A stretch of DNA of 64,000 nucleotides from Pseudobdellovibrionaceae bacterium. Its GTDB lineage: Bacteria; Bdellovibrionota; Bdellovibrionia; Bdellovibrionales; Bdellovibrionaceae. Every line of letters starts with the position of its first letter. Positions within the stretch are counted from its first letter, which is position 1. Shown one piece after another: positions 49,078 to 64,000 of the stretch. A program made the translations under genes and the position numbers. The notes beneath the pieces were generated by a model, which saw only the letters and a list, made by a program, of their open reading frames with translations, was not told the origin of the DNA and did no database searches. Location: positions 32,001-96,000 of the forward strand of contig JBDHWW010000002.1 in NCBI GenBank assembly GCA_039810425.1. Reading direction: 5' to 3'.

Positions 49078-49899
49078 TTAAGGTCCGCATTTCGTAGCAA
49101 CTTTATGGCCTACAACAGTTTTGCGATGCCCTTGCGGCTCTCCCTTTTCAAAGAGCCACAATGTCCCCGGTTCAAAGGGAACCCAGGCTTCATTATCTGT
49201 CAACGGAGCTGTTGCAATGACCGCCACTTGATCGGTAGACGACGCCACAGAACTAAAGTCCACTTTGACGTCACGATCTTTAAGATGCGCCGTTGGGAAC
49301 GGCGCCTTGCGAATGATATAGGAAAGTTTATCGGCCATCGAGCAATGCGCAAAAAGCTGATCACCATTTGAAAACAAGAAGTTGAACTCACCGTGCTTGC
49401 CAATTTCTTTGGTAAGCGTTGCCAGAGTTTCAAAGAGCGCTTCCATGCCCGGCATTTGCAAACCATGGCGGTTACGGAATTCCTGCATGATCCAGCAAAA
49501 GGCGCGCTCACTGTCGGTACTTCCCACTGGCAAGAAAGAACCATCGAGTGTCGGTTTGAAATCCGGCACGTTTCCATTGTGTGCGAAAATCCAGTAGCGG
49601 CCCCAAAGTTCACGCATGAAGGGATGGGTGTTTTCTAAACTCGCCACCCCTTGCGTGGCTTTGCGAATGTGGGCAATGACACTCTTTGAATGAATCGGAT
49701 AGGCCTTTATGAACTCGGCCACCGGAGAATGAATCGATGCTTTGGAATCTAAAAATTGCCGAACGGCTTTGCCCTCGAAGAATGCAATCCCCCAACCATC
49801 TTTATGATCGCCAGTAAGACCGCCACGCGCTTGAAAACCGGTGAACGAAAAACAAATATCGGTGGGCACATTGCAATTCATTGCAAGAAGTTGGCACAT
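49078..49899 (-). CDS. yafJ: Class II glutamine amidotransferase, YafJ-like
   Basis: N-terminal MCQL nucleophile, DGWG, AHIRKAT, NTHPF, FAHNG, GSTDSE. Confidence 0.92.
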   Translation of the reverse strand: MCQLLAMNCNVPTDICFSFTGFQARGGLTGDHKDGWGIAFFEGKAVRQFLDSKASIHSPVAEFIKAYPIHSKSVIAHIRKATQGVASLENTHPFMRELWGRYWIFAHNGNVPDFKPTLDGSFLPVGSTDSERAFCWIMQEFRNRHGLQMPGMEALFETLATLTKEIGKHGEFNFLFSNGDQLFAHCSMADKLSYIIRKAPFPTAHLKDRDVKVDFSSVASSTDQVAVIATAPLTDNEAWVPFEPGTLWLFEKGEPQGHRKTVVGHKVATKCGP

Positions 49900-50011: not shown

Positions 50012-50391
50012 GTGGTTTTGCTGTAAGCCGGATTCTGTCCCAGTCACCAGGTCCCATAAGTTTCCCGATAACCTTGGATGATCATTCCTCTAGGAGGGTC
50101 CTTACGGACCCCCTCAAGCGATCTTACCCGGAAGCTACCCACGGGTCGTGGTACTATTGCTTCCCTATTTGATCTTGCTCCGCGCAGAGTTTGGCTGTTT
50201 TCACTCCAGCGGCTCCCCCGGACCCTCCCGTTCCCGGAATCCGGCTCAATGCCCTGGACATTCTCTCTGTTCCACTGTTCCTTGCATTACTGCAGAGGGG
50301 CGTTACCCCTTGCGCTACCCTTTGGAGTCCGGACTTTCCTCCCCCCAAGAACCCCGAAAGGCCCTTTGGCGGCGATCATCCGCAAAACCGC
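50012..50391 (-). ncRNA. rnpB: RNase P RNA (type A)
   Basis: Minus strand carries GAGGAAAGUCCGGACUCC near the 5' end and ACAGAAUCCGGCUUA near the 3' end; P1 helix GGUUUUGC/GCAAAACC. Confidence 0.96.
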
Positions 50392-50505
50392 AGTTCTTCT
50401 AACACTCTAGGCCATAAACTGTAAACCCCCAAACGCTGTTTTGAGTTCACAGGGGGCGATTTTTCTATTAATTTGGGGTTCTTCAGCTAAATAAGGATGC
50501 TACAT

Positions 50506-50952: not shown

Positions 50953-51726
50953 CTATTTTGTTTTATACTTAGATTTTGTTTTCGGACGGGGCAAGGTTTT
51001 TACAAAGGACCTTGCCTCTTCTTTTTCCAGCTCAGTAATCGCGCCCCAGTCTTTATTCGTGAGTGCACCAATAATCGCATAGGCAAATAGCGAATGTCTG
51101 CTCTGAGCATCCGCTTTTACGAGCTTCACCATGGTTTTTTTCCACCCGAGCTCTATGAATTGTCGAACGGTTTTAATCCCCGCTTTGCGAAATGCTTCTT
51201 CACTCTTCGGGCCTAGGTTTTTAAGATCCGAAATCTTCTTAGCTTTCTTCAAGGCATCTACGGCCGGCTCATCCGAGAACATTCTCGGCGTGCGTGTGTC
51301 GATGTTGCCGTAGTCTTCTTCTTTTTGGGCGCGCTTCTTTTTCGAAGTCTTCGGCTTCGGAACGCTTCCCCAATAGCTTGTCGGCTTCACCGCCTGAGCT
51401 ATCACCTCAGTGACGAGGTCTTCGAAATTTTCAGTCTCTAGCGGAAGATAGAGCCACTTCGGCAGAATCGGATGCGGCGTTAAAAAGGGAAAGCGCGCTA
51501 ACGCCTTTCCCTGAAACTCGCGATCCACCGGAAACATACAACCATTCCATATTTCAAATGGATATTTTTGGCGCTTATAAGTGCGATTCCCCGTACTCTC
51601 AAAGGTCGCAAGAACCATCTTGTCCTCGATATAATAGGCAAAGCCACCGAACATTGCTTTTCGGCGGTACTCGTCTTCGGGAAGAAGACCTTCAATCCAT
51701 TTAAGTTCTTGGGGTTCTTTAGCCAT
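50953..51726 (-). CDS. TfoX/Sxy-family protein (N- and C-terminal TfoX domains)
   Basis: KAMFGGFAYY (TfoX_N); LKNLGPKSE..F..AGIKT...F.ELG, LF.YA..GA (TfoX_C). Confidence 0.85.
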   Translation of the reverse strand: MAKEPQELKWIEGLLPEDEYRRKAMFGGFAYYIEDKMVLATFESTGNRTYKRQKYPFEIWNGCMFPVDREFQGKALARFPFLTPHPILPKWLYLPLETENFEDLVTEVIAQAVKPTSYWGSVPKPKTSKKKRAQKEEDYGNIDTRTPRMFSDEPAVDALKKAKKISDLKNLGPKSEEAFRKAGIKTVRQFIELGWKKTMVKLVKADAQSRHSLFAYAIIGALTNKDWGAITELEKEEARSFVKTLPRPKTKSKYKTK

Positions 51727-51869: not shown

Positions 51870-53294
51870 ATGGGCTTTAAAATAATTTCTCCCGCGCAGT
51901 TAGAAATTCAGCTGCGGCGGTTTGAAATTCGTCTATCGCAATACTGTGCCGCCAGATTTAAGTGGCTCACTCCTCTGGCGGCAGCGCTTCTGGTTCTCTT
52001 AGCCTTTTGGACTAAATCCCTGATTGAAGTAGACCCGAAGAGTTTGCAAAACTCCGGCATGTTCTTGTTTACCCACCATGCCCGTTATGTCATGCCTTTT
52101 CTTCTGGCGGGTGCGGGAATCTCTATTTTTTTCCATCGCAAAAATCGGGCGTATTATACGACAGCCGTTACCATGATCGCCTGGGCACTGAATTGCTACA
52201 TGCTTTTCCTGGGTAAAGTGCCCGCGGATGTTTTCATCTGCATTCTTTGTTCCTTTCCAACGAATTGTATCTTTACATACTATTTAGGGGTCCATCGCCG
52301 CGAAGGCAGGCCCCGGGTGAGCCTTTCCATCGGCATGATCGCGTACTTTGCATTGACATGGGTTTACATCAGTACGCGACTCTACTCGCAGGATGAATAT
52401 GGGCAGTTACTACTGTTTTGGAATTTCAAGCTGCAGTACATGATTCTTGTCGCCATTCAGCTGGCTTTCGCGTTTTCTCCCCGGCCGGTGGATCCATTTC
52501 TTGCTTATAATCCGGTGACAGCGGCCCACAGTATACTTTGGCCCGTCACGACTTTGTTGGCCCGGCGAAACCGCCCTGCGATTTCGCGACTCTGGTGGAA
52601 TGGGTTTTGGTGCGTAATTTTGGGATATCTGATTATCTCTCTGCGCATTCAATTGGATAAATCAGACTTGGACGTTTCTAAAAATCTCTTTATTCGATCG
52701 ACCTCACGCTATTTTCTGCTGATTCTATCCGACGTTGGTGTTTTCAATCTCGTGACGGGTGTTGCAAGACTTTACGGCTACCGCGCTCGCGATGCCACGA
52801 GCTTTTCTTGGTTGGCTCGAACTCCAGCGGAATATTGGCGCCGTGGCAGCGTTTACCACTACGACTTCATCAATAGATATCTTTATCGTCGGCTATGGAA
52901 ACGCATCCGGATCCGATTTGTAGTAGCTTTCATTTGTTTCTTTTTCTTCTATGTGATGAAAAATGGGGCCCTGGACGTGGGGGCCATGTTCCTAAATTGG
53001 ATGGGCGCTGATATTCATGGCGCGTTTTATCGTAGCCCCGATACCCGTTACTCGGTGATTTTGTTCCTCCTGCACTTTCTATTGCTGTACACGACTCAGA
53101 GGTATTGGTTTTTTGAATGGTCACACCAAAAGAAAGTTTGGCAATCGTGGGCCTCGGTTCTCGCAACCTATGCCCTGCAAATATCGGCCATTGCTCTAGC
53201 CGTTGTATTGAACACTCATGGCCATCAATGGTTGATGCATCTTTGGAAAATTCTTACTTTATTTGGGTCAGGGGGCGATCTAAAGCTTCTGTAA
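51870..53294 (+). CDS. Degenerate MBOAT-family (DltB/AlgI-like) membrane protein
   Basis: About 10 TMs; GVARLYGY....SWLARTPAEYWRR.......INRYLY resembles the MBOAT G.A.LFG..N...P......FWRRWH......RDYVY block; both conserved His residues are absent. Confidence 0.6.
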   Translation: MGFKIISPAQLEIQLRRFEIRLSQYCAARFKWLTPLAAALLVLLAFWTKSLIEVDPKSLQNSGMFLFTHHARYVMPFLLAGAGISIFFHRKNRAYYTTAVTMIAWALNCYMLFLGKVPADVFICILCSFPTNCIFTYYLGVHRREGRPRVSLSIGMIAYFALTWVYISTRLYSQDEYGQLLLFWNFKLQYMILVAIQLAFAFSPRPVDPFLAYNPVTAAHSILWPVTTLLARRNRPAISRLWWNGFWCVILGYLIISLRIQLDKSDLDVSKNLFIRSTSRYFLLILSDVGVFNLVTGVARLYGYRARDATSFSWLARTPAEYWRRGSVYHYDFINRYLYRRLWKRIRIRFVVAFICFFFFYVMKNGALDVGAMFLNWMGADIHGAFYRSPDTRYSVILFLLHFLLLYTTQRYWFFEWSHQKKVWQSWASVLATYALQISAIALAVVLNTHGHQWLMHLWKILTLFGSGGDLKLL

Positions 53295-54066
53295 CTTTCT
53301 TCACTTTAGACATCATGCTTTTGAAATCATCAAAAGTCAGCGCTTGAGGTCCATCTGATAGCGCTTCCGCAGGACAAGGATGTACTTCCACGATAACGCC
53401 GTCAGCACCCGACGCCGCCGATGCAATTGCAAGATCTGGAACTAGGGCGCGGATCCCCACCGCATGTGACGGGTCGACAATGACTGGAAATGACGTATTC
53501 TTCTTTACGTAAACGACCGCATTTAAATCTAGAGTGTTACGAGTCGCCGTTTCAAATGTTCGAATTCCGCGCTCACAAAGAATGACGTTTTCGTTACCAC
53601 CGTTTGTGATGTACTCCGCTGCTTTAATCCACTCATCGATCAGGGCGGCGAACCCACGCTTCAAAAGGACCGGTTTGTTCTGCCTGCCCAGTTCTTTTAA
53701 GAGCGAGTAATTAAACATGTTCCGCGCACCCACTTGAAACATGTCGACGAAATCATGGACCTCTTCGACTTGCTCCGCGTCGGTAATTTCCGAAACGAGA
53801 CCCATGTTCGTTTCTTTTAAAACTTCTCGAACAAAATCAAACGAGCTTTCTCCCAAACCTTGAAAGGTCTTCGAAGACGTGCGCATCTTCCAAATCCCCC
53901 CGCGAAGTAAGCAGGCCCCATTGGATTTCACTGTCTGGGCTGTATCTAGAAACTGTTTTTTACTCTCGATGGAACAAGGGCCCGCAATGACTGAAAAGCT
54001 TTCGCCGCCGACTTCTACATTTCCGTAAGCAGTTCTAATTTTCACAACGCGGGTGAAGGGATTCAT
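53254..54066 (-). CDS. aroF: DAHP synthase type I-beta, no regulatory domain
   Basis: IAGPCSIES, RGG.WKMRTS, QVGARNM, LLKRG, LCERGIRTFE, DPSH, EVHP, SDG. Confidence 0.9.
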   Translation of the reverse strand: MNPFTRVVKIRTAYGNVEVGGESFSVIAGPCSIESKKQFLDTAQTVKSNGACLLRGGIWKMRTSSKTFQGLGESSFDFVREVLKETNMGLVSEITDAEQVEEVHDFVDMFQVGARNMFNYSLLKELGRQNKPVLLKRGFAALIDEWIKAAEYITNGGNENVILCERGIRTFETATRNTLDLNAVVYVKKNTSFPVIVDPSHAVGIRALVPDLAIASAASGADGVIVEVHPCPAEALSDGPQALTFDDFKSMMSKVKKVTEALDRPLTQIK

Positions 54067-54246
54067 ATAATAAGTATCGGTAAATATTAAACTTACCTCA
54101 AGCGCTCTCTCGCTGAAATGAACAGAGTTAACATCGCCGGCTACTTTTAAAATGTGAAGCCCGCACTAGGTCTAGCACCCAATCACTTTTTGCGCTGGTT
54201 TTTCGTACCGAGGAGTATAATAATTACTAAACAGTGAGAGGGAATC

Positions 54247-54543
54247 ATGAGCAAAAACGATACAGCACTGGCCATCTATGAGCTGAGAAATCAGATCGAC
54301 CTGATAGACAATCAAATTGCTGAAGCCCTGAATAAGCGCGCTGCCATCGTCGAAGAAGTTTGGACACTGAAACAGCAAAGCCAGCTCCCTTTTATTGATC
54401 AAGGCAGGGAAAACGCCATCTTCGCCCGGGTTCGCTCGATCGCAAAAGAGCCTCTGACGGCGGACTCCATGCAAAACATCTTTCAATGCATTCTCCACGA
54501 AGTCCGACCAAGAATTAAGAGTGCAAAAGCCAAATCAGGATAA
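54247..54543 (+). CDS. Monofunctional chorismate mutase (AroQ)
   Basis: LRNQIDLID.QI...L..R......V..LK......ID..RE catalytic pattern. Confidence 0.88.
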   Translation: MSKNDTALAIYELRNQIDLIDNQIAEALNKRAAIVEEVWTLKQQSQLPFIDQGRENAIFARVRSIAKEPLTADSMQNIFQCILHEVRPRIKSAKAKSG

Positions 54544-54546
54544 AAA

Positions 54547-56019
54547 GTGGTCGCTAAAAACGTAAAGAAAAAAACACCCTTTGAAGTCGAGCCTGGCTTC
54601 TACCTAGAAGACAACCGCAACCAACGGGCTGTCGTCCCCGTCACCAAAGAAACTCTTGAAACCAAACACGCAGCCATTATGCCTGAATGGGTGGTCGAAG
54701 GAAAAAGCGTACTCGATTTGGGCTGCTGCCTGGCGGCTACGGGACATTGGTGTCTTTCTTATGGCGCAAAAAAGTACACTGGCGTGGAACTCCAGCCCGT
54801 CTATGCCAAAAAAGCCAAAGAGCTTCTTGGCAAGCATTGGTCTAAGGATCAGTTTAAAATTGTCCAATCGGAAATTTCTGATTTTCTCGATGAAGTCAAA
54901 AAAGATGAATACGATATCGTGATGATGGCTGGCGTGCTTTATGTCTTCCTCGACTACTTCTCAGTTCTGGAGAAAATGGCCTATGCTTCGAAGGAATGGG
55001 TTCTGCTGGAATCCATCATGCCACAAAAAAATTTAGATCCAGAAACTCCATATGTCGAATTCGTGAACAAGCAAACCATCACCTTACCGAACGGGCAAGA
55101 ACGCGCACGCGGTATTGGCAGTCGTGTGAGTCCCGGCGGCTTAAAGATGGTTATGGAGCACTTTGGTTTCACAAGCCAAGAGGGTATTATTACCCCGGCT
55201 GCGGTTAAAGACACTCACGATGCTTTCAACGAAGTAATTCCGGGTTGGAAATCTCCGGTGCGTTTTATGATGCGCTTTCAAAAAAGTGGCGCAAAAGTCG
55301 CGGATTTATCCACCGAGCTCAAAACGGGTAGATTCAAACAGCCTAAAGCCGGCTTCGACTCCTACAAGCCCGGAACGAAATTGAAAGCCGGCTCTTGGCA
55401 GTTTAACGACATAGTCGCCGATGAGTTTGAAAATATCGCACTGACTTCGATTCCCCGCTACAAAGAAGTCATCGGCATGTGTGTCGAACTCGCCGCCAAA
55501 GCATATCCGGATAAAAAGTGCCGTGTTCTGGATGTGGGTTCTGCCATTGGCAAAACCATGGACGAATTCCATAGCAACGGATTCAAAGACGTTTGGGGCG
55601 TTGAAAAGTCCGAGGCCATGATCAAGGGGTCTAAATACCGTGATCATGTTATTCACTCCGACACTTTCCCGCCTGGCCAAAAGCCCTTCCACATAGTGTG
55701 CGCGAACTGGACACTTCATTTCGTGAAAGAGCGCCGGGCTTATTTGAAAGATATCTACAATGGCCTGGAGAAAGATGGCTTTTTAATTTTGTCTGATAAA
55801 ACTCAGGGAAATCCATTTCTTCTTGAGCTGTATCATGATTTTAAGCGCCGAAATGGCCTGACAGAGCAGCAGATTGCAGACAAAGCGGAATCTATCAAAG
55901 GGGTTCTGGAACCTTATCCTTTGACTTGGTATTTGGTCGAATTGAAAAACATCGGTTTTAACGAGGTTCACGTGATCAATGCCTACTATCACTTCACAAC
56001 CTTTTTGGCGCGCAAGTAG
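54547..56019 (+). CDS. Two-domain fusion: CmoB-like carboxymethyltransferase + CmoA-like carboxy-SAM synthase
   Basis: N-domain GKSVLDLGC, GVLY, PVR; C-domain WQF...VA..F......SIP.Y, NWTLHF, IYNGL..DG.LILSDK, HDFKRRNG. Confidence 0.8.
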   Translation: MVAKNVKKKTPFEVEPGFYLEDNRNQRAVVPVTKETLETKHAAIMPEWVVEGKSVLDLGCCLAATGHWCLSYGAKKYTGVELQPVYAKKAKELLGKHWSKDQFKIVQSEISDFLDEVKKDEYDIVMMAGVLYVFLDYFSVLEKMAYASKEWVLLESIMPQKNLDPETPYVEFVNKQTITLPNGQERARGIGSRVSPGGLKMVMEHFGFTSQEGIITPAAVKDTHDAFNEVIPGWKSPVRFMMRFQKSGAKVADLSTELKTGRFKQPKAGFDSYKPGTKLKAGSWQFNDIVADEFENIALTSIPRYKEVIGMCVELAAKAYPDKKCRVLDVGSAIGKTMDEFHSNGFKDVWGVEKSEAMIKGSKYRDHVIHSDTFPPGQKPFHIVCANWTLHFVKERRAYLKDIYNGLEKDGFLILSDKTQGNPFLLELYHDFKRRNGLTEQQIADKAESIKGVLEPYPLTWYLVELKNIGFNEVHVINAYYHFTTFLARK

Positions 56020-56063
56020 TTTTATATTGATCGCTAAATTTGTTTTTGAGACAGTTTATATCT

Positions 56064-56762
56064 ATGGAAGCAGCTAAAGTAAGAGCCTCACGCAGAAGTA
56101 TTTGTATTTTGTGGCATTTGAAATCGAAAAGAATTCTCTGCGTGACTCGCTATACTAGTACCGCCCAAGCACTGATGTCTTCCGGAATGGAGATGGGTTT
56201 TAATATTGTGTCTAGGGCCAAACCCATCCTCCACTCCGAAGACCGTGTCGAGCGTTTAAGACGTATCCCGCCGGAAGAACTCCCGAACTATCTTTTCCAT
56301 CGCCAGTCCGGGACCATCGTAAAAATTGAGAATCCAAAGCCCCTCACAGAAAAACAGAAAAATGCCTGCATTCTGCTCGCCGGCCGCGCTCGTTATCTTC
56401 GACGGGTCACTCGGGTGGTGAGTCAGGCTCGTAAACGCGTGGCGCCTTCTGAGCTCTATGGAGCCTTCGTTGACCAGATTCGCCGCGAACAAGCGTTGAA
56501 GTTCCGTGCATCCGGGTATGACGAGGCTTTGATTCAAGAATGCCTTTTCGTATTTCAGTATGCCCAAGTGAAGAAGATCACGGCACGAGCGGCGGCTGAT
56601 GAGATCATCTTCCGCTTTAGCTTGTTTGAAGCTGACCTGTGGAAAACAGAAGAAGTGAAGTTGAAATATTACGACCTCTTTGCCAATGCCGCAAATTTAG
56701 AAGACCTTCATGATATTTTTCAAGATTTTATCAGGGAGTACTATTTAAATGCCCGTGTCTAA
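56064..56762 (+). CDS. Hypothetical protein A (paralog of 58898..59470)
   Basis: In operon, overlaps the next gene; helical C-terminus LFANAANLEDLHDI; start uncertain (TTG 56040 or ATG 56064). Confidence 0.65.
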   Translation: MEAAKVRASRRSICILWHLKSKRILCVTRYTSTAQALMSSGMEMGFNIVSRAKPILHSEDRVERLRRIPPEELPNYLFHRQSGTIVKIENPKPLTEKQKNACILLAGRARYLRRVTRVVSQARKRVAPSELYGAFVDQIRREQALKFRASGYDEALIQECLFVFQYAQVKKITARAAADEIIFRFSLFEADLWKTEEVKLKYYDLFANAANLEDLHDIFQDFIREYYLNARV

Positions 56763-57864
56763 AAATATTTATATTTATAATCCCATGCTCATTACGAAGA
56801 AAAAGCTGCAGGATCTGCCGGGAATCCGGGCTTTTCGGCATGTGTTACATCTTTTCAATGAAAATGTTGTTTTGGTCGATCGCACCAATACCATTCAGGT
56901 GCCTGTGAATGTCACGGTTCACGCTCCAATTCCGGAGTTTCGTATGATTGACAAGTCTTACGAACAAATTTGTGATGAGCGTGCCCAGGAACTGCTTCAC
57001 CGGTCGGATGAACATGATTTACCGATCAATGTGTTCTATTCGGGCGGCATTGATTCCACTCTCGTTCTGGTTTCTCTCTTAAAAAATGCGACGGAAGCGC
57101 AGAAAAATCGCATCTGTGCTTTTATGTCCCAAGAATCTATCAACGAAAATCCCGCTTTCTACCGCGATCACCTCCGCGGCAAAGTCAAACTCGAGGCGGC
57201 CGCAATTTATCCCTACGCGCTGTCTAAGCGAGCCCTATTTGTCGGTGGTGAGCACAATGATCAAATCTTTGGGTCGGCATTATTTAAAGACTTCCTAGAC
57301 CTCCATGGTGAAGATGCCCTCGCGAAGAAATACAGCCGTAGTCAAATGGGGCAAATGTTTGGTCGAAAATGGCACAATGATGTCGTGATCTCTTGGTATA
57401 TGGACCTCTTTGAAAAAGTGCGTGCGGCGGCTCCTTGTCCGGTGGATTCCAATGCGGATTTCCTATGGTGGATTAATTTTTCTTTAAAGTGGCAGTCCGT
57501 TTATTTCCGAATGCTAACTTATGCTTCGGACTTTGTGATTCACAACATTGATCGAGATTTCATTGATAATAACTTCTTTCATTTCTATGGTACTGATGCT
57601 TTCCAGCTCTGGTCCATGGGGAATCCGGATAAGCGTGTCGTGACGAAATGGGAGTCTTACAAGCAAGAAGCAAAAGATGTGATTTATCGCTTTAATAAAG
57701 ATTCAGAGTATCGCGACTATAAAACAAAAAATGGCTCACTCGCATGGGTGATTATGCATCAGATCCAAAAGAACTTTATTGATGATCAAATGCATATGTA
57801 CATGACTTTGCCGCGTAAGGATTGGTTCAATCCCAATAATAGCTTTAGGGACGCTCCATTTTAG
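56749..57864 (+). CDS. PP-loop ATP pyrophosphatase, asparagine-synthetase C-domain-like, no glutaminase domain (B)
   Basis: YSGGIDST, GGEHNDQIFGS, terminal Lys KTK. Confidence 0.78.
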   Translation: MPVSKNIYIYNPMLITKKKLQDLPGIRAFRHVLHLFNENVVLVDRTNTIQVPVNVTVHAPIPEFRMIDKSYEQICDERAQELLHRSDEHDLPINVFYSGGIDSTLVLVSLLKNATEAQKNRICAFMSQESINENPAFYRDHLRGKVKLEAAAIYPYALSKRALFVGGEHNDQIFGSALFKDFLDLHGEDALAKKYSRSQMGQMFGRKWHNDVVISWYMDLFEKVRAAAPCPVDSNADFLWWINFSLKWQSVYFRMLTYASDFVIHNIDRDFIDNNFFHFYGTDAFQLWSMGNPDKRVVTKWESYKQEAKDVIYRFNKDSEYRDYKTKNGSLAWVIMHQIQKNFIDDQMHMYMTLPRKDWFNPNNSFRDAPF

Positions 57865-57867
57865 AAT

Positions 57868-58908
57868 ATGGAAAAACTCCTAAATCTGAGCTTTAAATCT
57901 AGCCAAAGCCTTAAGAAGGTTATCTTTCAGGAAGATCTTTTATTTGATCCCTTCGATAAGGCTGTTAGCCGTCTCAACTACAAGCCGGATCTTTTCAACT
58001 ACGATCTTCAATCGGAAACAGTTATTAGCATTCAAAAGCTCCACAAAGCAAAGACATGGGAAGAGTGCTGTGCGGAAAGGGCGTTAAGCTTACTGAAACT
58101 CGAATATGAAAATTATTGGTTTGCCTACAGTGGTGGCATCGATAGCACGGCGATGCTCACTTCGATCCTGAAGTTTTGGCCCGTCAAAGACCTAGCTCGT
58201 GTTTCCGTTGTGCTCACCCATCACTCTGTCGAGGAGAATCCATTTTTTTTTGATAAGTATATCGTGAAGTTTAATCTTATTAACACTCTTCGCCCGCTCT
58301 CAAAAATGTTGTTGAAGGAACGCACGCTCTTGGTGACCGGTGAACTTGGCGATCAACTTTTTGGCTCCGATATACTAGGGGCTGGTAGCCGCCATTATGG
58401 CGATGAGGTCCTTTTTAAAAACTATAAAGACGTGGCTCCAAAGATTATTGAAGCTTACCTTGGCACAAAAGGGCCTGGAAAAAGTATTTTTGAGCACTTT
58501 TATCCGATTGTTGAAGAAGCTCCTTTCCCGATTAAGACAGCCTATGACTTTTTTTGGTGGTTGAACTTCTCGCAAAAATGGCAACACGTGAAATTTCGTT
58601 TTACCGAAAGCAAAAGTTGGCATTTGGCGGCCAAATATGGCAGTCATATCCAGCACTTCTACGACAGCCCGGACTTCCAAAGCTGGAGCTTACAGAATCA
58701 TGATTTAAAAGTTCGCAGTACTTGGCAGTCTTACAAGTTCACTGCAAAGGACTACATTGCGGATTTTACCAAGGATCCAGGGCAGCTGGATCTGATGAAG
58801 ATTCAAAGCCTGGAAAAAACCTATGTCCTCGATGAAAAACGTATTGGCGTAGACTCGAACTACAAACCGATCCGAGCCTTTGAGGAGCTCAGGCACTATG
58901 CCAGATAG
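57868..58908 (+). CDS. PP-loop ATP pyrophosphatase, asparagine-synthetase C-domain-like, no glutaminase domain (B')
   Basis: YSGGIDST, TGELGDQLFGS; shares DF.WW.NFS.KWQ, HFY....FQ.WS, W.SYK..AKD with B. Confidence 0.78.
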   Translation: MEKLLNLSFKSSQSLKKVIFQEDLLFDPFDKAVSRLNYKPDLFNYDLQSETVISIQKLHKAKTWEECCAERALSLLKLEYENYWFAYSGGIDSTAMLTSILKFWPVKDLARVSVVLTHHSVEENPFFFDKYIVKFNLINTLRPLSKMLLKERTLLVTGELGDQLFGSDILGAGSRHYGDEVLFKNYKDVAPKIIEAYLGTKGPGKSIFEHFYPIVEEAPFPIKTAYDFFWWLNFSQKWQHVKFRFTESKSWHLAAKYGSHIQHFYDSPDFQSWSLQNHDLKVRSTWQSYKFTAKDYIADFTKDPGQLDLMKIQSLEKTYVLDEKRIGVDSNYKPIRAFEELRHYAR

Positions 58909-59470
58909 AGTAAAGCTCTTCATTTATACCGACGCTAAAACTCACCGTGTACTTTTAACAAAGCGAAGTACGAGGTTCAATTTTCTGGTAACTGTTCAAG
59001 GTGTTCATGTGCACATTCTCAGTTCGCGCCTTGAACTTCCGGAAATCAAGCCTATGGCTCAAACTTACACACCTAAAGTGGGACTGAAGAAGGCTGGATC
59101 AAAACTTGGCAAGCCGGCGCAAGAGCGCCTGGGCATTTTGCGTCGAAAGGTCGAGATCGTCATTCTGGTGCTGACGAGCCTCTATATTATGCGCGATGAG
59201 ATGAAGGCCACCTTCGCAAAGCGTGTTCTTGAAAACACCCCGATAAGTTCAGATAACTTCAAAAAATACTGGCTTTTTTCCGCCGAAGAAAAGAATCTCC
59301 TATCTGTGCGTCTTCAAAAATTCGAGAAAAAGTTCACTATGGCGGTCAATGCCGCAGAAACCCTGGATCAAGTGGATGCTCTTTACGAGCATCTGCATTT
59401 TAATGTGAATCTTGGGGTCTACTCAGTGATGAATAGAGAGAGAAAGGGGCTCCATGGCACAAAAAGTTAG
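58898..59470 (+). CDS. Hypothetical protein A' (paralog of 56064..56762)
   Basis: ATG 58898 overlapping the B' stop; C-terminal AVNAAETLDQVDAL. Confidence 0.6.
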   Translation: MPDRVKLFIYTDAKTHRVLLTKRSTRFNFLVTVQGVHVHILSSRLELPEIKPMAQTYTPKVGLKKAGSKLGKPAQERLGILRRKVEIVILVLTSLYIMRDEMKATFAKRVLENTPISSDNFKKYWLFSAEEKNLLSVRLQKFEKKFTMAVNAAETLDQVDALYEHLHFNVNLGVYSVMNRERKGLHGTKS

Positions 59471-59798
59471 TATTGATATCTTAAAGAAGGCCCTTCTGGA
59501 GGTTAATCCTCGTGTGCGTAAGATAAACTTCACGGCACAAACAGATCTCTTTGAAGAGGGAATTCTGGATTCATACTCCGTGATTCAGCTTGTGAATACT
59601 TTTGAAAAGCGCTTTGGTATTGTCTTTGATTATGCCGATTTGAAGGCGGCGTATTTTAGGAACCTCATAAGTCTTATCGGTATCCTCACGATGAAGTATA
59701 AGCTCAAGGAGGGCAAGAATCCTCCGCCAAATAAGAAGAAAAAGAAAAGAAAGGCCAAAAAAGCCGGGGTCGTCAAAAAGGCTAAAAAGAAGAATTAA
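59454..59798 (+). CDS. Acyl/aminoacyl carrier protein (DltC-like) with Lys-rich tail
   Basis: DLFEEGILDS(40)YSVIQLV...E..FGI phosphopantetheine site; tail PPPNKKKKKRKAKKAGVVKKAKKKN. Confidence 0.85.
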   Translation: MAQKVSIDILKKALLEVNPRVRKINFTAQTDLFEEGILDSYSVIQLVNTFEKRFGIVFDYADLKAAYFRNLISLIGILTMKYKLKEGKNPPPNKKKKKRKAKKAGVVKKAKKKN

Positions 59799-60451
59799 AA
59801 CTTCGTAAATGTTCGATTTAACATCGGATGAGAATCATCTGTCGGCCCGGTATCCGAATCCGGATGAAAGGCGATAATTTTCAATTTTTCGCCGAAAGAA
59901 TTGAATGAGTGAACTAAACCCTCCGGTAAATAGAAGGCCATGCCCGGTTTCAAAGGGAGTTTCTGATTCGGCATCACACACTCCCCTTCACCTTCAAACA
60001 CGACACCAAGACGAACCGTCGGATGAATATGCGGCGTTTGAACCACTTTGGGCGGAAATACTAAAAGGTTGAAAACGGGATCCCCCATACGGGGCGGCGG
60101 AATGATAATTGTTGTGTTGGAATTATCGATGTAACAGAGACGACCACTGTCTTCTACGGGGCCACCTACATGGAGAAGCCCCCGGTATCCGACGCGTTCG
60201 ATGACGATGATTTCGCCATCCCCTTTGATATGAAACGGGCCGGGCGCAGAGAAGTACATGCCACCCTGAAGTGTGACATAGTGTTGCCCCTGGCGCTGCA
60301 ATTCATATTTGCCATTGAGAACGAATCCAAAGTAAGTACTTGTCGGGAGCGCAAAACTCTCATCACAGCGTCCGAAGCCTTTTAAGACACTCGGATACAT
60401 CGTGGCAGACGCATCTAAAACACATCCTTCTTTAACCTGCTTATAAATCAT
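59795..60451 (-). CDS. Cupin-fold protein (tandem cupin-like)
   Basis: QTPHIHPTVR.GVV.EGEG, LKPG..FYLP.G.VHSF metal-binding His set; FHPDSD.GP. Confidence 0.8.
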   Translation of the reverse strand: MIYKQVKEGCVLDASATMYPSVLKGFGRCDESFALPTSTYFGFVLNGKYELQRQGQHYVTLQGGMYFSAPGPFHIKGDGEIIVIERVGYRGLLHVGGPVEDSGRLCYIDNSNTTIIIPPPRMGDPVFNLLVFPPKVVQTPHIHPTVRLGVVFEGEGECVMPNQKLPLKPGMAFYLPEGLVHSFNSFGEKLKIIAFHPDSDTGPTDDSHPMLNRTFTKF

Positions 60452-60540
60452 AGTTGCTCCCCCACTCCTCTACTTTAAAGACTATCTCCCTATTTCCATT
60501 CGCTGTCATGGTCCAATGCATATGGATCCAGACCTAAGTT

Positions 60541-61509
60541 TTAAATCGTCGCCTTCGCTTTCTGCTTCTTATGCATTGTTTTTGGCTTCTTTGTTTCCGC
60601 CTTCATCTTTTCTGCATTTTCTTTTCTATTTTTTTCCATGGCTAAATAGCTTGAGATCATCGGCTTGATTATTTGAAAGCTCTTATTGACGCCATTCGAA
60701 TTTAGCTGCGTCCTCGAACCACCCATAAGATTTTCTGAGCGGAAAAGTTGATAGAACTCCCGCGTAAGTAATTGAAAATTGAAGCCAGAATAAGCCAAAT
60801 ATTCTTTTATCTCTTTTTTATCTACGTTAGCGCCGCTGAAAAATATTTGAGCTACAGAGGAACTCATTTGATTGTCAGGAAATATTTCACGGTTATATCG
60901 TATTCTTTCTGGAGATATAAGAAAGACGACTCGGGCTTTATCTTTCAATAAGAACTGGATAGACCGGAGTGGCACGAAACTTACATCGAGAAAAAATTCC
61001 CTTTTGTCGGTAGCCGAGCCTTCGACATTCCAGCTCGTCTCCAATCTATCCTGTATGAAAATGGCCTTCTTAACGGGCAACAGATAATCTAATCTAGGCA
61101 ACAACACTCGCGACCACGTGGGTTGATTCGTAAAAATTTCATCTTTAGAAAAGACTTCTGCAGTGAGAGGCGTGTCAGGTAAGTTCCTGCTAAAAAGCAC
61201 TTCTTCAAAATCCCTTGCAAACATTCTGGACGGCTGGACATAGAAAATGTAGTCAGGCTGTGACGTCTTTAGACGCTCTTGGAGAAAGAAGTACTGGCTA
61301 AGAGCGAATCCCGGAGATGTCTTTAGCTCCACTTGAACCGGCCTTCCCAAAGACTGTAACAAATAGGATTCCAGGTTGTGCAGGCTCGTTTTGAGTTCTG
61401 GCGTATCAGCACTCCAAATCTCCGGCGCAACAAGCCACACGATCAGTGGCCCGTCATCTGCTTTAGCCTGTAGACATAATAGTACAAGAAAGCTTAAAAC
61501 GTACTTCAA
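60541..61509 (-). CDS. Secreted protein, degenerate SGNH/GDSL-like (DltD/AlgX-like) fold
   Basis: Signal peptide; LGRPVQV....SPG....Q......QPDYIF (block II/III-like); TQLNSNG in the DxxH.N..G position; Lys-rich tail. Confidence 0.45.
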   Translation of the reverse strand: MKYVLSFLVLLCLQAKADDGPLIVWLVAPEIWSADTPELKTSLHNLESYLLQSLGRPVQVELKTSPGFALSQYFFLQERLKTSQPDYIFYVQPSRMFARDFEEVLFSRNLPDTPLTAEVFSKDEIFTNQPTWSRVLLPRLDYLLPVKKAIFIQDRLETSWNVEGSATDKREFFLDVSFVPLRSIQFLLKDKARVVFLISPERIRYNREIFPDNQMSSSVAQIFFSGANVDKKEIKEYLAYSGFNFQLLTREFYQLFRSENLMGGSRTQLNSNGVNKSFQIIKPMISSYLAMEKNRKENAEKMKAETKKPKTMHKKQKAKATI

Positions 61510-62840
61510 TAGAGTTCTCCAGTTTTGACTGCGTGGTTTAATTTATACTGATTTGGATAAAAAAGAACCTTTTGAGCCCAATCTTTCATCCCGTTACGAT
61601 ACCAATAAATGCTCTTATATCCTTTGGATTTTAAGTAAATAGCGGCTTTATACGCACGCCAATCATACTCGTTCTCACCAATGAGAACGATCGTCTTATT
61701 TTTTGGTATGTTGATACTATTCTTATAGCCTTCCTTGTGTCTCCTCAATCCTTTCGCATTCATCCTGCCACGAAAGACCGGCATGGAAAGTGCGTTTCTT
61801 TTTTCGGGGAAAGACATCGCTAATGTTCCCGGCAAAGAGAATTTTTTTTCCAAGCGAACGTCGACTATTGTATTTTTCTTTTTATCCCGCATAAACTCTC
61901 GAACTTGATTTGCCTCGACGACTATTGCCGCATCAGACTTATCCGGCGTTAGACACGGCTTTGCTTTGTCTCCATACTCCGCCATTCCACCGGGAAACCA
62001 ACCTACGTTTCTATACCCCATAGAGACTAGCAGTGTGACCGTGTTATAAGCAGAGTACTCTGCGGGACACCCAGAAATGATATTTACAGGCTCGCCTTTA
62101 TTTGCGGGAAGAGGGTTTTTACTAAACATGATCTTATGTTTTTTCATTTCCTCCGGTGACAAAATCTCAGAGGAAATTCGCATATAGTCAACATACTCAA
62201 GAGCCTTTGCATACTCCAGGGGAACCTTCTTTTTTAAGGTCGCGGGCCGGATATCATATACGTGACTGTTTTTTAAACTCTCCATGAACTCCTTTTTTTT
62301 AAGACTCTTAGCCTCAGGATGCACGCGAGGACTTCCATAAGATTTCAAAGTGTCGGACAAATGATCCGCTATGACAGTTACGGCAATAAGAGGAGCCATA
62401 TCAAGATCGGGACCTTTTCTCCCGGTAAAGTCAGCAATCTTATTTTTAAAATAATTTAACTCTTTTTCAGTCGCCTGGTGTGATTCACGTTTTTTGTACT
62501 CAGCATAGTTAATTTTTTCTACTTTCAGGATTTTAACAGTCCCTCTGTTTGCCCGCCAAAATACCAGGCTTTCTGAATTTTTCGTCTCTACCAACTCAAT
62601 TTTTTGATTAGGCATAAAACATTTATCGGTGTTCACAAAATAGAGCGTTTCTGGCTGGTTCTTAATCACCTTCCAAAATTTGGCACTATTCATGTGTATA
62701 TTTTTTTCCGCTGTTTTCTCTGAGCATGCTACGGCCGTGACGCCCTCCACGGCTGTCTTTTCGGCCGCCACCACAGGCCAGGCCAGTAGTGATAAGGCTA
62801 AAATGAAACAAGCAATATAACCGTTATAATTCACTTCCAT
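61506..62840 (-). CDS. Secreted tandem rhodanese-like domain protein
   Basis: Signal peptide; two repeats: YDIR...SAYN....LVSMGYRNVGWFPGGMAEY and VDVR...RAYKAA.YL.SKGYKSIYWYRNGMKDW. Confidence 0.75.
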   Translation of the reverse strand: MEVNYNGYIACFILALSLLAWPVVAAEKTAVEGVTAVACSEKTAEKNIHMNSAKFWKVIKNQPETLYFVNTDKCFMPNQKIELVETKNSESLVFWRANRGTVKILKVEKINYAEYKKRESHQATEKELNYFKNKIADFTGRKGPDLDMAPLIAVTVIADHLSDTLKSYGSPRVHPEAKSLKKKEFMESLKNSHVYDIRPATLKKKVPLEYAKALEYVDYMRISSEILSPEEMKKHKIMFSKNPLPANKGEPVNIISGCPAEYSAYNTVTLLVSMGYRNVGWFPGGMAEYGDKAKPCLTPDKSDAAIVVEANQVREFMRDKKKNTIVDVRLEKKFSLPGTLAMSFPEKRNALSMPVFRGRMNAKGLRRHKEGYKNSINIPKNKTIVLIGENEYDWRAYKAAIYLKSKGYKSIYWYRNGMKDWAQKVLFYPNQYKLNHAVKTGELY

Positions 62841-64000
62841 CGAACAAGCCCCCCAGACGTATCGAGTGAAAAAATAATTTCGCCATTGTTAATCCAAGGA
62901 ACAGAACTCAAACGGTCTCCGAGATTAATCCGCCTTTTAATGGTCCCTTTTAAAGAATTAAAAATACATAGTTCTCTTTCAAAACAATTTGCCAGAAGCT
63001 CCTCCTGCTGATTTTTCCCTTTTTTTTCTACAAGCAATACCGGGCTTGAGAAAAAAACTCCGCTTCCTTGATGCCGCCACAGTTCTTTTCCGTTCGAGAA
63101 GTCAAGGGCTATGGTTCTTCCAGAAGACGTGCTAATGTAGACAGCATTCGCTTTTTTTGACCATGTCGGCGAGCTTTGACAAGCGCCTTCTAAAGGCGAA
63201 TTCCAAAGGAGCTCACCCGTAGCTGCCTTCACCTTATAGATATTCTTGTCCCAAGAGCAGAAGACCACCGAACCATCAGCGACCATGGGTGTGCCCTTAA
63301 TCGCCAGTCCAATGGGGTACCGCCATGCAAACTTCCCGGTCACCACATCTAACGCGTTTAAATAGCCATTGTTCGAGCCCACAAAGACCAGCCTGCCGTC
63401 TTCTGAAAGTGCGGGCGACGAATGCGCCTGATCTCCAAAGAAGGGACTCTTCCACTGAAGCTCTCCTGTGGCGGCGTCAATTTTGGCAATAAAGCCGTCC
63501 GGTGGTGAAAAGGTCTCTACAGCAACGTAGATTGAACCTCGATCATATAAAGGCGAAGATCCAATAGTCTGGCCCAGAGGTAATAGCCAATTGAGTTCAC
63601 CTGACTCTTTATTAGCTGAATAAAGCATGCCGTCGTAGTCACCCCAATAAACTGAGTTTCCCGCTATAAGCCCGCTGCCGTGGATTCCTTTGTCCGCTGA
63701 TGTCGTCCACCGCCAAATTTCCCTTCCTGACATATCTATCGCAGAGAAATAGCCCTGATCAGAACCAGCAAAGATCTTAGTGCCGTCTGATATCGGAGAA
63801 CTTTTACTCGCTGTATGCCGTGAATCATTCCAATTTGGTTTGCGCCATATAGGTCGGCTCATCGGATGAATTAGCTCCTTAGTCTGGACAACTCCAGTAC
63901 GTTGAGCATCTTCACGATACATCACCGTCCTCTGCGAAGAATCCAATTTCGCACTTTGATAGCGCCATGGAGTGATTTCAGCCGAGCCATTCTTATTTGT
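62831..64000 (-). CDS. PQQ/BamB-type beta-propeller protein (5' end beyond window)
   Basis: Repeated SSP...G.DG.L.A.D..TG...W blades; frame open to position 64000. Confidence 0.85.
   Translation of the reverse strand, partial: TNKNGSAEITPWRYQSAKLDSSQRTVMYREDAQRTGVVQTKELIHPMSRPIWRKPNWNDSRHTASKSSPISDGTKIFAGSDQGYFSAIDMSGREIWRWTTSADKGIHGSGLIAGNSVYWGDYDGMLYSANKESGELNWLLPLGQTIGSSPLYDRGSIYVAVETFSPPDGFIAKIDAATGELQWKSPFFGDQAHSSPALSEDGRLVFVGSNNGYLNALDVVTGKFAWRYPIGLAIKGTPMVADGSVVFCSWDKNIYKVKAATGELLWNSPLEGACQSSPTWSKKANAVYISTSSGRTIALDFSNGKELWRHQGSGVFFSSPVLLVEKKGKNQQEELLANCFERELCIFNSLKGTIKRRINLGDRLSSVPWINNGEIIFSLDTSGGLVRWK

Follow-up and report, generated by a model that had tools for sequence, protein, structure and literature searches.

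Carboxy-S-adenosylmethionine (Cx-SAM) has few known uses, which lie in tRNA, phage DNA, 3-thiaglutamate and microcin C. According to the accessible parts of the reports cited here and below, Cx-SAM carboxymethylates a peptide or peptide-nucleotide, not tRNA, in the TglE/TglF (3-thiaglutamate) and MccS/MccB (microcin C) systems (PMC10491745), and the published CmoA–CmoX–CmoY pathway of Synechococcus phage S-B43 combines CmoA, a carboxymethyltransferase and an AsnB-like amide ligase that act on DNA (PMC12783734). AsnB homologues have also been proposed to amidate acids bound to acyl carrier protein (ACP), by GbnC/GbnA (gladiolin) and MgsD/MgsC (glutarimide; bioRxiv 10.64898/2026.04.24.720606). 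Here we describe a 13-gene cluster of a Pseudobdellovibrionaceae bacterium that suggests a further branch of Cx-SAM chemistry. It occupies positions 51870..64000 of the window, that is, the whole stretch of 64,000 nucleotides analysed (G000:C2:32001-96000). The source genome, G000, is 3.5 Mb in size and 99.9% complete, and GC content changes from ~0.49 to ~0.44 across the region.

Two unnamed families meet in the cluster: a fused synthase-transferase with 77 relatives, and ligases of the AsnB fold that are frequent both in uncultivated phages and in the candidate phyla radiation (CPR). The best explanation, at a probability of roughly 0.4, is that chemistry like that of CmoA/CmoX/CmoY has been turned to decorating an exported surface protein or fibre. 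Prephenate from the cluster's own supply would be used by a CmoA-like domain to make Cx-SAM, and the transferase half of the same protein would carboxymethylate a non-tRNA acceptor. Two ligases, B and B′, would then convert the new carboxylate to an amide with ATP, and the product would pass via the ACP and a membrane protein to an exported surface protein, for which the neighbouring pilus-linked secreted protein is the candidate. (A, B, B′ and A′ are working names for four plus-strand genes of the cluster; A* denotes a family related to A.) A sequence-only reading had not recognised this combination from any described pathway. Cx-SAM coupled to an amide ligase (on phage DNA) and amidation of ACP-bound acids are already published; no description of the cluster or of the A–B family was found in the literature covered, which included few subscription papers and no supplements.

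Conservation and ancestry of the cluster

All 13 open reading frames that the sequence-only reading had named are present on the strands assigned, with tight or overlapping junctions. Its labels of 3-deoxy-D-arabino-heptulosonate 7-phosphate (DAHP) synthase, chorismate mutase, ACP, cupin, rhodanese and PQQ-type propeller all score over curated cut-offs, and for the first gene, A, B, B′, A′ and a 322-aa protein no family reached its cut-off in the scans. B occurs in two of six other genomes of the genus (G002 and G005) and in 20 of 384 genomes of the order; a closed genome of the genus, G001, is without it. The whole array is found in G005 and, minus the DAHP synthase, in G002, and cluster proteins are 60-90% identical across the three genomes. 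A core of the MBOAT-like membrane protein, B′, a 163-196-aa gene in the position of A′ and the ACP recurs in eight of the 20 B-positive genomes (G000, G002, G005, G476, G472, G477, G034 and G574); of the other 12, three lie on contigs <8 kb. Joint conservation of the genes had been put forward as a check, with a chance mosaic as the alternative, and the recurrence of the array and of its core rules out such a mosaic.

Outside the order, B was sampled at 76 loci in genome_contigs (from the best 80 of 82 confirmed) and at 78 in viral contigs (from the best 80 of 543). The number confirmed in phage contigs is at least 543, with ~880 stretches estimated, and the host range takes in CPR, Bacteroidota, Alphaproteobacteria and others, mostly with A ahead of B. 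Genes neighbouring B in 159 loci were cupin (64), A (59), A* (43) and propeller (21), and more rarely symporter-like (16), YcaO (11) and methyltransferase or CmoA (10); these counts omit nine duplicate or short loci and come from loci that are redundant, not independent. Conversely, B lies near 31 of 152 methyltransferase–CmoA loci from viral and metagenome sequences, or 20 of the 69 that reach >=14 kb. Three CPR-type loci (L295, L319 and L304) share the gene order HTTM-like, propeller, methyltransferase, CmoA, A, B and symporter-like, and a fourth (L268) is similar with CmoA alone; the YcaO/SagB-like genes of these four loci were named by position and resemblance.

A FastTree phylogeny of 174 de-duplicated sequences (midpoint-rooted, four duplicate loci omitted) nests B with 24 CPR and two phage sequences (support 0.975) and places B′ in a ten-member Bdellovibrionales clade (support 0.969). 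The cluster is a mosaic of two ancestries, in which a CPR/phage-type module (methyltransferase–CmoA, A, B and HTTM-like–propeller) is joined to a Bdellovibrionales core (MBOAT-like, B′, A′ and ACP); the tree gives no direction of transfer. The earlier account of the gene set stands for the presence of the genes, and lacked this two-module ancestry, the spread of A–B through CPR and phages and the candidate acceptor past position 64000.

The separate clades of B and B′ would also suit two uncoupled modules, whereby a CPR/phage-derived peptide-tailoring module sits within a native unit for envelope acylation (MBOAT-like–B′–A′–ACP), with no transfer of the carboxymethyl group to the ACP. In keeping with this, A–B stands in the core of G476 with the methyltransferase missing, and G472, G477, G034 and G574 have the core without A–B. 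However, the genes of the two modules are interleaved, with overlapping junctions, and have been kept so in three genomes at the protein identities given above, and we regard uncoupled modules as unlikely.

Two further sets of B loci were observed. B islands of other Bdellovibrionales (L363, L364, L366, L368, L371-L375) share a gene set with freshwater phage loci (L193, L197-L199, L258, L291), comprising desaturase, SDR, AMP-ligase, keto-acid cleavage-like, GNAT, oxygenase-like and TRAP/TctC-like genes, labelled mostly by resemblance. In Bacteroidota, Acidobacteriota, Planctomycetota and others (L025-L065), B and cupin form a minimal pair with no A, and a conserved 128- or 168-aa gene often takes A's position.

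Prephenate supply and the fused synthase-transferase

The cluster encodes a class I-beta DAHP synthase (53254..54066, minus strand) and a type II chorismate mutase (54247..54543, plus strand). The latter is the only PF01817 match in G000, which also encodes chorismate synthase, and G001 has no chorismate mutase match. DAHP-family (PF00793) matches number three in G000, one of them in the cluster, versus two in G001; the gene lies inside the cluster in G005 and in locus L247 and not in G002. Searches of G000 found no prephenate dehydratase, prephenate dehydrogenase or U32/TrhP; the dehydratase and dehydrogenase are both present in G002. A dedicated prephenate supply, as had been proposed, is supported, and a sole chorismate mutase in a genome where no outlet to Phe or Tyr was found is the best support for use of prephenate by the adjoining fusion.

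This fusion (54547..56019, plus strand) begins with a class I transferase core like that of CmoB (~residues 1-250), followed by a CmoA-like domain (~280-490). The best Protein Data Bank (PDB) matches of the CmoA-like half are YecO and CmoA (1im8, 4gek, 4iwn). Its SAM-binding residues Y305 and N387, equivalent to CmoA Tyr39 and Asn132, are invariant in 75 of 75 fusions, and the lid lysines K418, K433 and K446 in 73 of 73 family members. The half scores 96.7 bits against TIGR00740, below the cut-off of 193.3.

The N-terminal half scores 16-20 bits against CmoB families with cut-offs of 209-275, and its profile match to canonical CmoB (106 columns, probability 94%) is partly generic fold likeness, given that the C-terminal half scores similarly against CmoB. 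The tRNA-specific N-terminal domain of CmoB (~100 residues) is absent, and the alignment begins at ~CmoB residue 75. Tyr132 aligns locally with CmoB Tyr200 (Tyr kept in 52 of 73), and D22/R24/R27 are kept in 72 of 73 family members. The name CmoB-CmoA fusion needs correction in that the N-terminal half is not a member of CmoB. An alkyltransferase distinct from CmoB is in support of the earlier reading, and carboxymethyl transfer by it appears somewhat probable.

CmoA homologues were also observed in cultured phages. That of Erwinia phage Y3 (L408:2965-4633) keeps the arginine equivalent to CmoA Arg199 and adjoins an asparagine synthase, and that of a Staphylococcus SPbeta-like phage (L409:2962-4661) has Ser at this site and adjoins a C5-methyltransferase.

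The ligases B and B′ and their partners

B (56749..57864, plus strand, 371 aa) is a stand-alone PP-loop enzyme with the motif SGGIDS, and its P-loop (SGGxDS) is kept in 99-100% of 174 B sequences. Its closest relative (92%) is named as a Bdellovibrionales protein. The predicted structure (predicted local distance difference test score, pLDDT, 92) has the AsnB synthetase fold: the best match is TsnB9 (Z 13.4, root-mean-square deviation 4.6, 261 residues aligned) and the top five are all of the AsnB family, with beta-lactam synthetase (Z 12.2), human ASNS (12.2), carbapenam synthetase (10.9) and E. coli AsnB (9.3) among the further matches. At sequence level, no PDB match was better than E 0.13 and cultured phages gave no match; Atlas entries for the model at 0.98 were only unnamed, mostly viral clusters. 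B aligns from ~residue 142-147 of AsnB-family chains and has no Ntn glutaminase domain. B′ (57868..58908, plus strand), which is linked to the ACP and the MBOAT-like protein, is a paralogue of B with 31% identity (E 2e-35), and the assignment of both to AsnB-type PP-loop ligases is upheld. By analogy with this family, we infer that B should adenylate a carboxylate and join it in an amide to an amine that is not ammonia derived from glutamine. That B and B′ form amides is quite likely.

CmoY was considered as an identity for B and rejected, given that the profile match covers 14 aligned columns of the P-loop only, at a probability of 17%. Two housekeeping genes flank the cluster, for a TfoX-domain protein (window 50953-51726, minus strand) and a YafJ-type class II glutamine amidotransferase (GATase_4; window 49078-49899, minus strand). 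The latter, a stand-alone glutaminase 2 kb from the cluster, could be an ammonia source for B or B′. Between them lies a possible RNase P RNA gene (window 50078-50424).

A (56040..56762, plus strand; alternative ATG start 56067) is modelled as a beta N-domain and a helical bundle (pLDDT 93). The best profile matches of A are to phage proteins without characterisation (E 1e-9); those to DUF4376 (E 5e-3) and to proteins of tail-fibre assembly (E 0.1-0.3) are weaker. The fixed position of A ahead of B leads us to guess that A presents the substrate to B; complex prediction for the pair (median 0.24 versus a mark of 0.32) was taken as evidence neither way. For the pairing of A with A′ (58880..59470, plus strand), a distant relationship is supported by profile comparison (E 3e-4, probability 39%), and similarity at the level of BLAST is not, as no match was obtained.

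Carrier and membrane proteins

The ACP (59454..59798, plus strand) is genuine as judged from its sequence: it scores 25.1 bits against PF00550 (PP-binding; cut-off 20.8) and has a phosphopantetheine-site serine (Ser40) in a GILDS motif, with a Lys-rich tail. Its best NCBIfam match is DltC, below cut-off. The first gene of the cluster (51870..53294, plus strand) encodes a multi-pass membrane protein that is weakly MBOAT-like. Its profile matches MBOAT over 63 columns (probability 85%, E 6e-6, against a two-sequence alignment); Pfam (PF03062) matched neither it nor three further homologues, and no PDB match was found. The earlier MBOAT/DltB label is weak: it has the profile match and gains nothing from Pfam, the PDB or a conserved catalytic histidine. 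A link of carrier and ligase genes had likewise been claimed, and B′, the ACP and the membrane protein do travel together. True MBOAT genes do flank B, in sets with an AMP-ligase and an ACP, in the genomes G228 and G508. That the ACP is acylated and its load exported is slightly less likely than not.

The 322-aa protein (60541..61509, minus strand) matches no family and has a signal-peptide-like N-terminus. An SGNH/DltD identity, as given in the sequence-only reading, is not supported: no Pfam, NCBIfam or PDB match was found and three orthologues showed no GDS motif or catalytic His.

Minus-strand run and candidate acceptor

The convergent minus-strand run contains the cupin (59795..60451), which is the commonest neighbour of B after A, the 322-aa protein, a rhodanese-domain protein with a signal-peptide-like N-terminus (61506..62840) and a propeller gene (62831..64000). 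Extension past position 64000, as had been asked for, showed that the run goes on without gaps. The propeller gene in the window is the C-terminal part of a 798-aa fusion of a membrane domain and an ACSF4/PQQ-type beta-propeller (whole gene G000:C2:94831-97227), so that the propeller assignment was right and its extent was not. The membrane half is named HTTM-like because a homologue in G034 matches HTTM, below cut-off, at E 0.004. Further upstream, the run encodes a secreted protein of 520 aa that carries a Gly/Asp tract (C2:97190-98752) and three minor-pilin-like proteins (C2:98754-103045), two of which have N_methyl matches below cut-off.

The Gly/Asp tract is the only one in G000 in a six-frame scan of the 3.5 Mb, and the searches placed the secreted protein, at full length, in G000, G002 and G005 alone, the three genomes with the cluster. 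In all three, cupin, rhodanese and propeller are packed in one run with the secreted protein and the pilins. Small signal-peptide-bearing open reading frames that end in Gly/Asp/Cys tracts occur at ten of 22 CPR or CPR-type B loci, and also at L268, L295 and L319; the tract of the secreted protein resembles these precursor peptides, but is embedded in a 520-aa protein. A scan of 49 non-CPR cellular loci gave two matches, neither precursor-like. At L001 and L078, both phage loci, the gene right after B encodes a Gly/Cys-rich protein, and Cys-rich tail-region proteins lie near B in five more. That the pilus-linked secreted protein is the acceptor is doubtful.

These settings allow a wider proposal, which is speculative and improbable as it stands: A–B may be an unrecognised mobile system for amidating proteins, acting on Gly/Asp/Cys-rich segments in the surface appendages of phages, CPR epibionts and Bdellovibrio-like predators. 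Its targets would be phage tail-fibre regions, CPR exported precursor peptides and the predator's pilus-linked secreted protein, and Cx-SAM and the ACP/MBOAT relay would feed A–B in this cluster.

Several related loci were observed alongside. CPR precursor-like peptides have a signal-peptide-type leader to an AHA/AYA site and then a Gly/Asp/Cys/Ser-rich core, and adjoin YcaO, SagB, a PRTase-propeller fusion, A and B (L006:2114-2518(−), L007:4515-4814(−), L013:1768-2040(+), L020:2770-3138(−), L021:8401-8802(−), L023:1097-1339(−) and L047:4081-4488(−)). At L087:6735-7145, L088, L109, L129, L153 and L075, in phage tail-fibre regions and a Polynucleobacter prophage-like locus, A–B–cupin shares a run with genes for a Cys-rich protein and a radical SAM enzyme; a modified tail-tip system is possible there. 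In Bdellovibrionales locus L167-L168 (G034:C1:225800-241000), the MBOAT-like–B′–ACP–cupin core stands together with SagB, YcaO, a membrane protein of the sulfatase family and a precursor of 80 aa that has a GG leader and a Cys-rich core.

A different end-product, namely a diffusible or lipid-linked small molecule made by Cx-SAM chemistry and ACP-bound amidation with the pilin operon a mere neighbour, is also conceivable. The other B islands of Bdellovibrionales and phages encode desaturases, SDRs, AMP-ligases and symporters as well as oxygenase-like and TRAP-like binding proteins, several of them named by resemblance. Amidation of ACP-bound acids by AsnB homologues is proposed for glutarimide and gladiolin starter units, and G002 has the cluster without the tract. 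Against this, there is no polyketide synthase (PKS), non-ribosomal peptide synthetase or exporter within the cluster, B has no glutaminase domain, and in each of the three genomes the cupin, rhodanese and propeller genes keep to one packed run with those of the pilins and the secreted protein. A small molecule is rather unlikely.

Points that weigh against surface decoration

A number of observations run counter to the surface-decoration reading. Five of the eight core genomes have no methyltransferase–CmoA in the stretch examined, B is absent from 121 of the 152 methyltransferase–CmoA loci, and outside this cluster chorismate mutase adjoins the fusion in just one of 160 loci. The membrane protein is weakened as an acyltransferase by its putative catalytic site: the catalytic His336 of DltB is described as invariant in MBOAT (PMC11035591), and at the corresponding position, which was set by eye, seven homologues have K, K, R, H, K, K and R. 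As for the acceptor, the G002 orthologue has no Gly/Asp tract despite the cluster (the tract is present in two of three), and none was found near B in 18 further Bdellovibrionales stretches; both findings weaken the tract as an obligatory substrate. CPR precursors, moreover, track YcaO, and no YcaO was found in G000.

A further objection concerns the fusion. Arg199 of CmoA is described as the diagnostic key residue for Cx-SAM, forming a salt bridge to its carboxylate (PMC3663124), and canonical CmoA from another family of the phylum keep it in eight of eight cases. The site is Ala447 in the window fusion, and among 75 fusions it is Glu in 29, Ala in 20, Lys in 11, Arg in six, Gln in four and another residue in five. 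Both halves might accordingly be ordinary methyltransferases, perhaps acting on a prephenate-derived aromatic acid later activated by B or B′; the invariant NWTLHF that the family carries in place of CmoA N-F/Y-TLQF, and the CmoA score of about half the cut-off, fit this too. Yet SpCmoA of phage S-B43, identified here by homology and gene order, has Glu at the Arg199 site and is reported to make Cx-SAM ten times as fast as its E. coli counterpart (PMC12783734). The missing arginine was therefore dropped as a bar to Cx-SAM synthesis: the family test failed, yet the function is still likely. With the lid lysines invariant and a partner domain that retains invariant arginines, plain methylation seems improbable. 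The claim that the CmoA-like domain can make Cx-SAM is plausible from the PDB matches and the SpCmoA comparison, and we consider its synthesis likely on these sequence grounds.

The transferase half has its own difficulties. Arg239 (69 Arg and four Lys of 73) matches CmoB Arg315 in a forced global alignment alone, and the fusions share no equivalent, across the family, of CmoB Lys91, described as the only residue that is essential in vivo (PMC4482062); TglF is reported to keep this lysine (PMC10491745). The invariant Arg24 and Arg27 might stand in for Lys91. A tRNA acceptor could also exist, as TrhO is present in G000. The fusion would then be a divergent CmoB–CmoA that makes ordinary tRNA cmo5U, the other cluster genes being unrelated, and no canonical cmoA or cmoB was found over cut-off in G000. 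However, G001 likewise holds TrhO and has no fusion, and the fusion occurs in just two of 401 sampled genomes of the phylum and mostly on phage-like contigs next to tailoring enzymes, which leaves a tRNA role very improbable.

Comparison with known systems

The cluster would work like CmoA–CmoX–CmoY but belongs to neither that system, the tRNA pathway nor Dlt. With S-B43 it shares a Cx-SAM synthase homologue without Arg199, an alkyltransferase and a stand-alone AsnB-like ATP-dependent amide ligase. It differs in that no C5-cytosine methyltransferase is among its genes and B lies outside the CmoY family, and it goes beyond S-B43 in encoding a chorismate mutase of its own, the partner A, an ACP and both membrane and secreted proteins. 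Like CmoA/CmoB of tRNA cmo5U synthesis (PMC3663124; PMC4482062), the fusion has the CmoA fold and lid, a CmoB-like Rossmann core and candidate equivalents of Tyr200 and, less clearly, Arg315; unlike them, it is a single protein without Arg199, Lys91 or the CmoB N-terminal domain and scores below the family cut-offs.

Judged by description, TglE/TglF and MccS/MccB resemble the proposed chemistry in their non-tRNA use of Cx-SAM and are set apart in that no PEARL or MccB homologue is annotated in the cluster. GbnC/GbnA and MgsD/MgsC likewise place an AsnB homologue next to a stand-alone ACP, whereas they use glutamine and feed a PKS, and B/B′ have no glutaminase domain and the cluster no PKS. As in Dlt (PMC11035591), an ACP adjoins a membrane protein with an MBOAT signature stretch, but the cluster has no DltA-type AMP-ligase, no conserved His336 site and no supported DltD/SGNH. 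YcaO azole-peptide clusters combine YcaO, SagB and a stand-alone precursor, whereas in G000 no YcaO was found and the tract lies inside a 520-aa protein.

What this analysis adds is the links of A–B to Cx-SAM, to the ACP and to Bdellovibrionales. The compact Bdellovibrionales copy, with its own prephenate supply and a candidate acceptor, makes the function of a large unannotated family testable in E. coli with few soluble proteins. If the wider proposal of A–B as a mobile amidating system is true, no earlier case of a surface protein with a carboxymethyl-amide modification would precede this one, and the chemistry would be common to organisms that live by attachment to bacteria.

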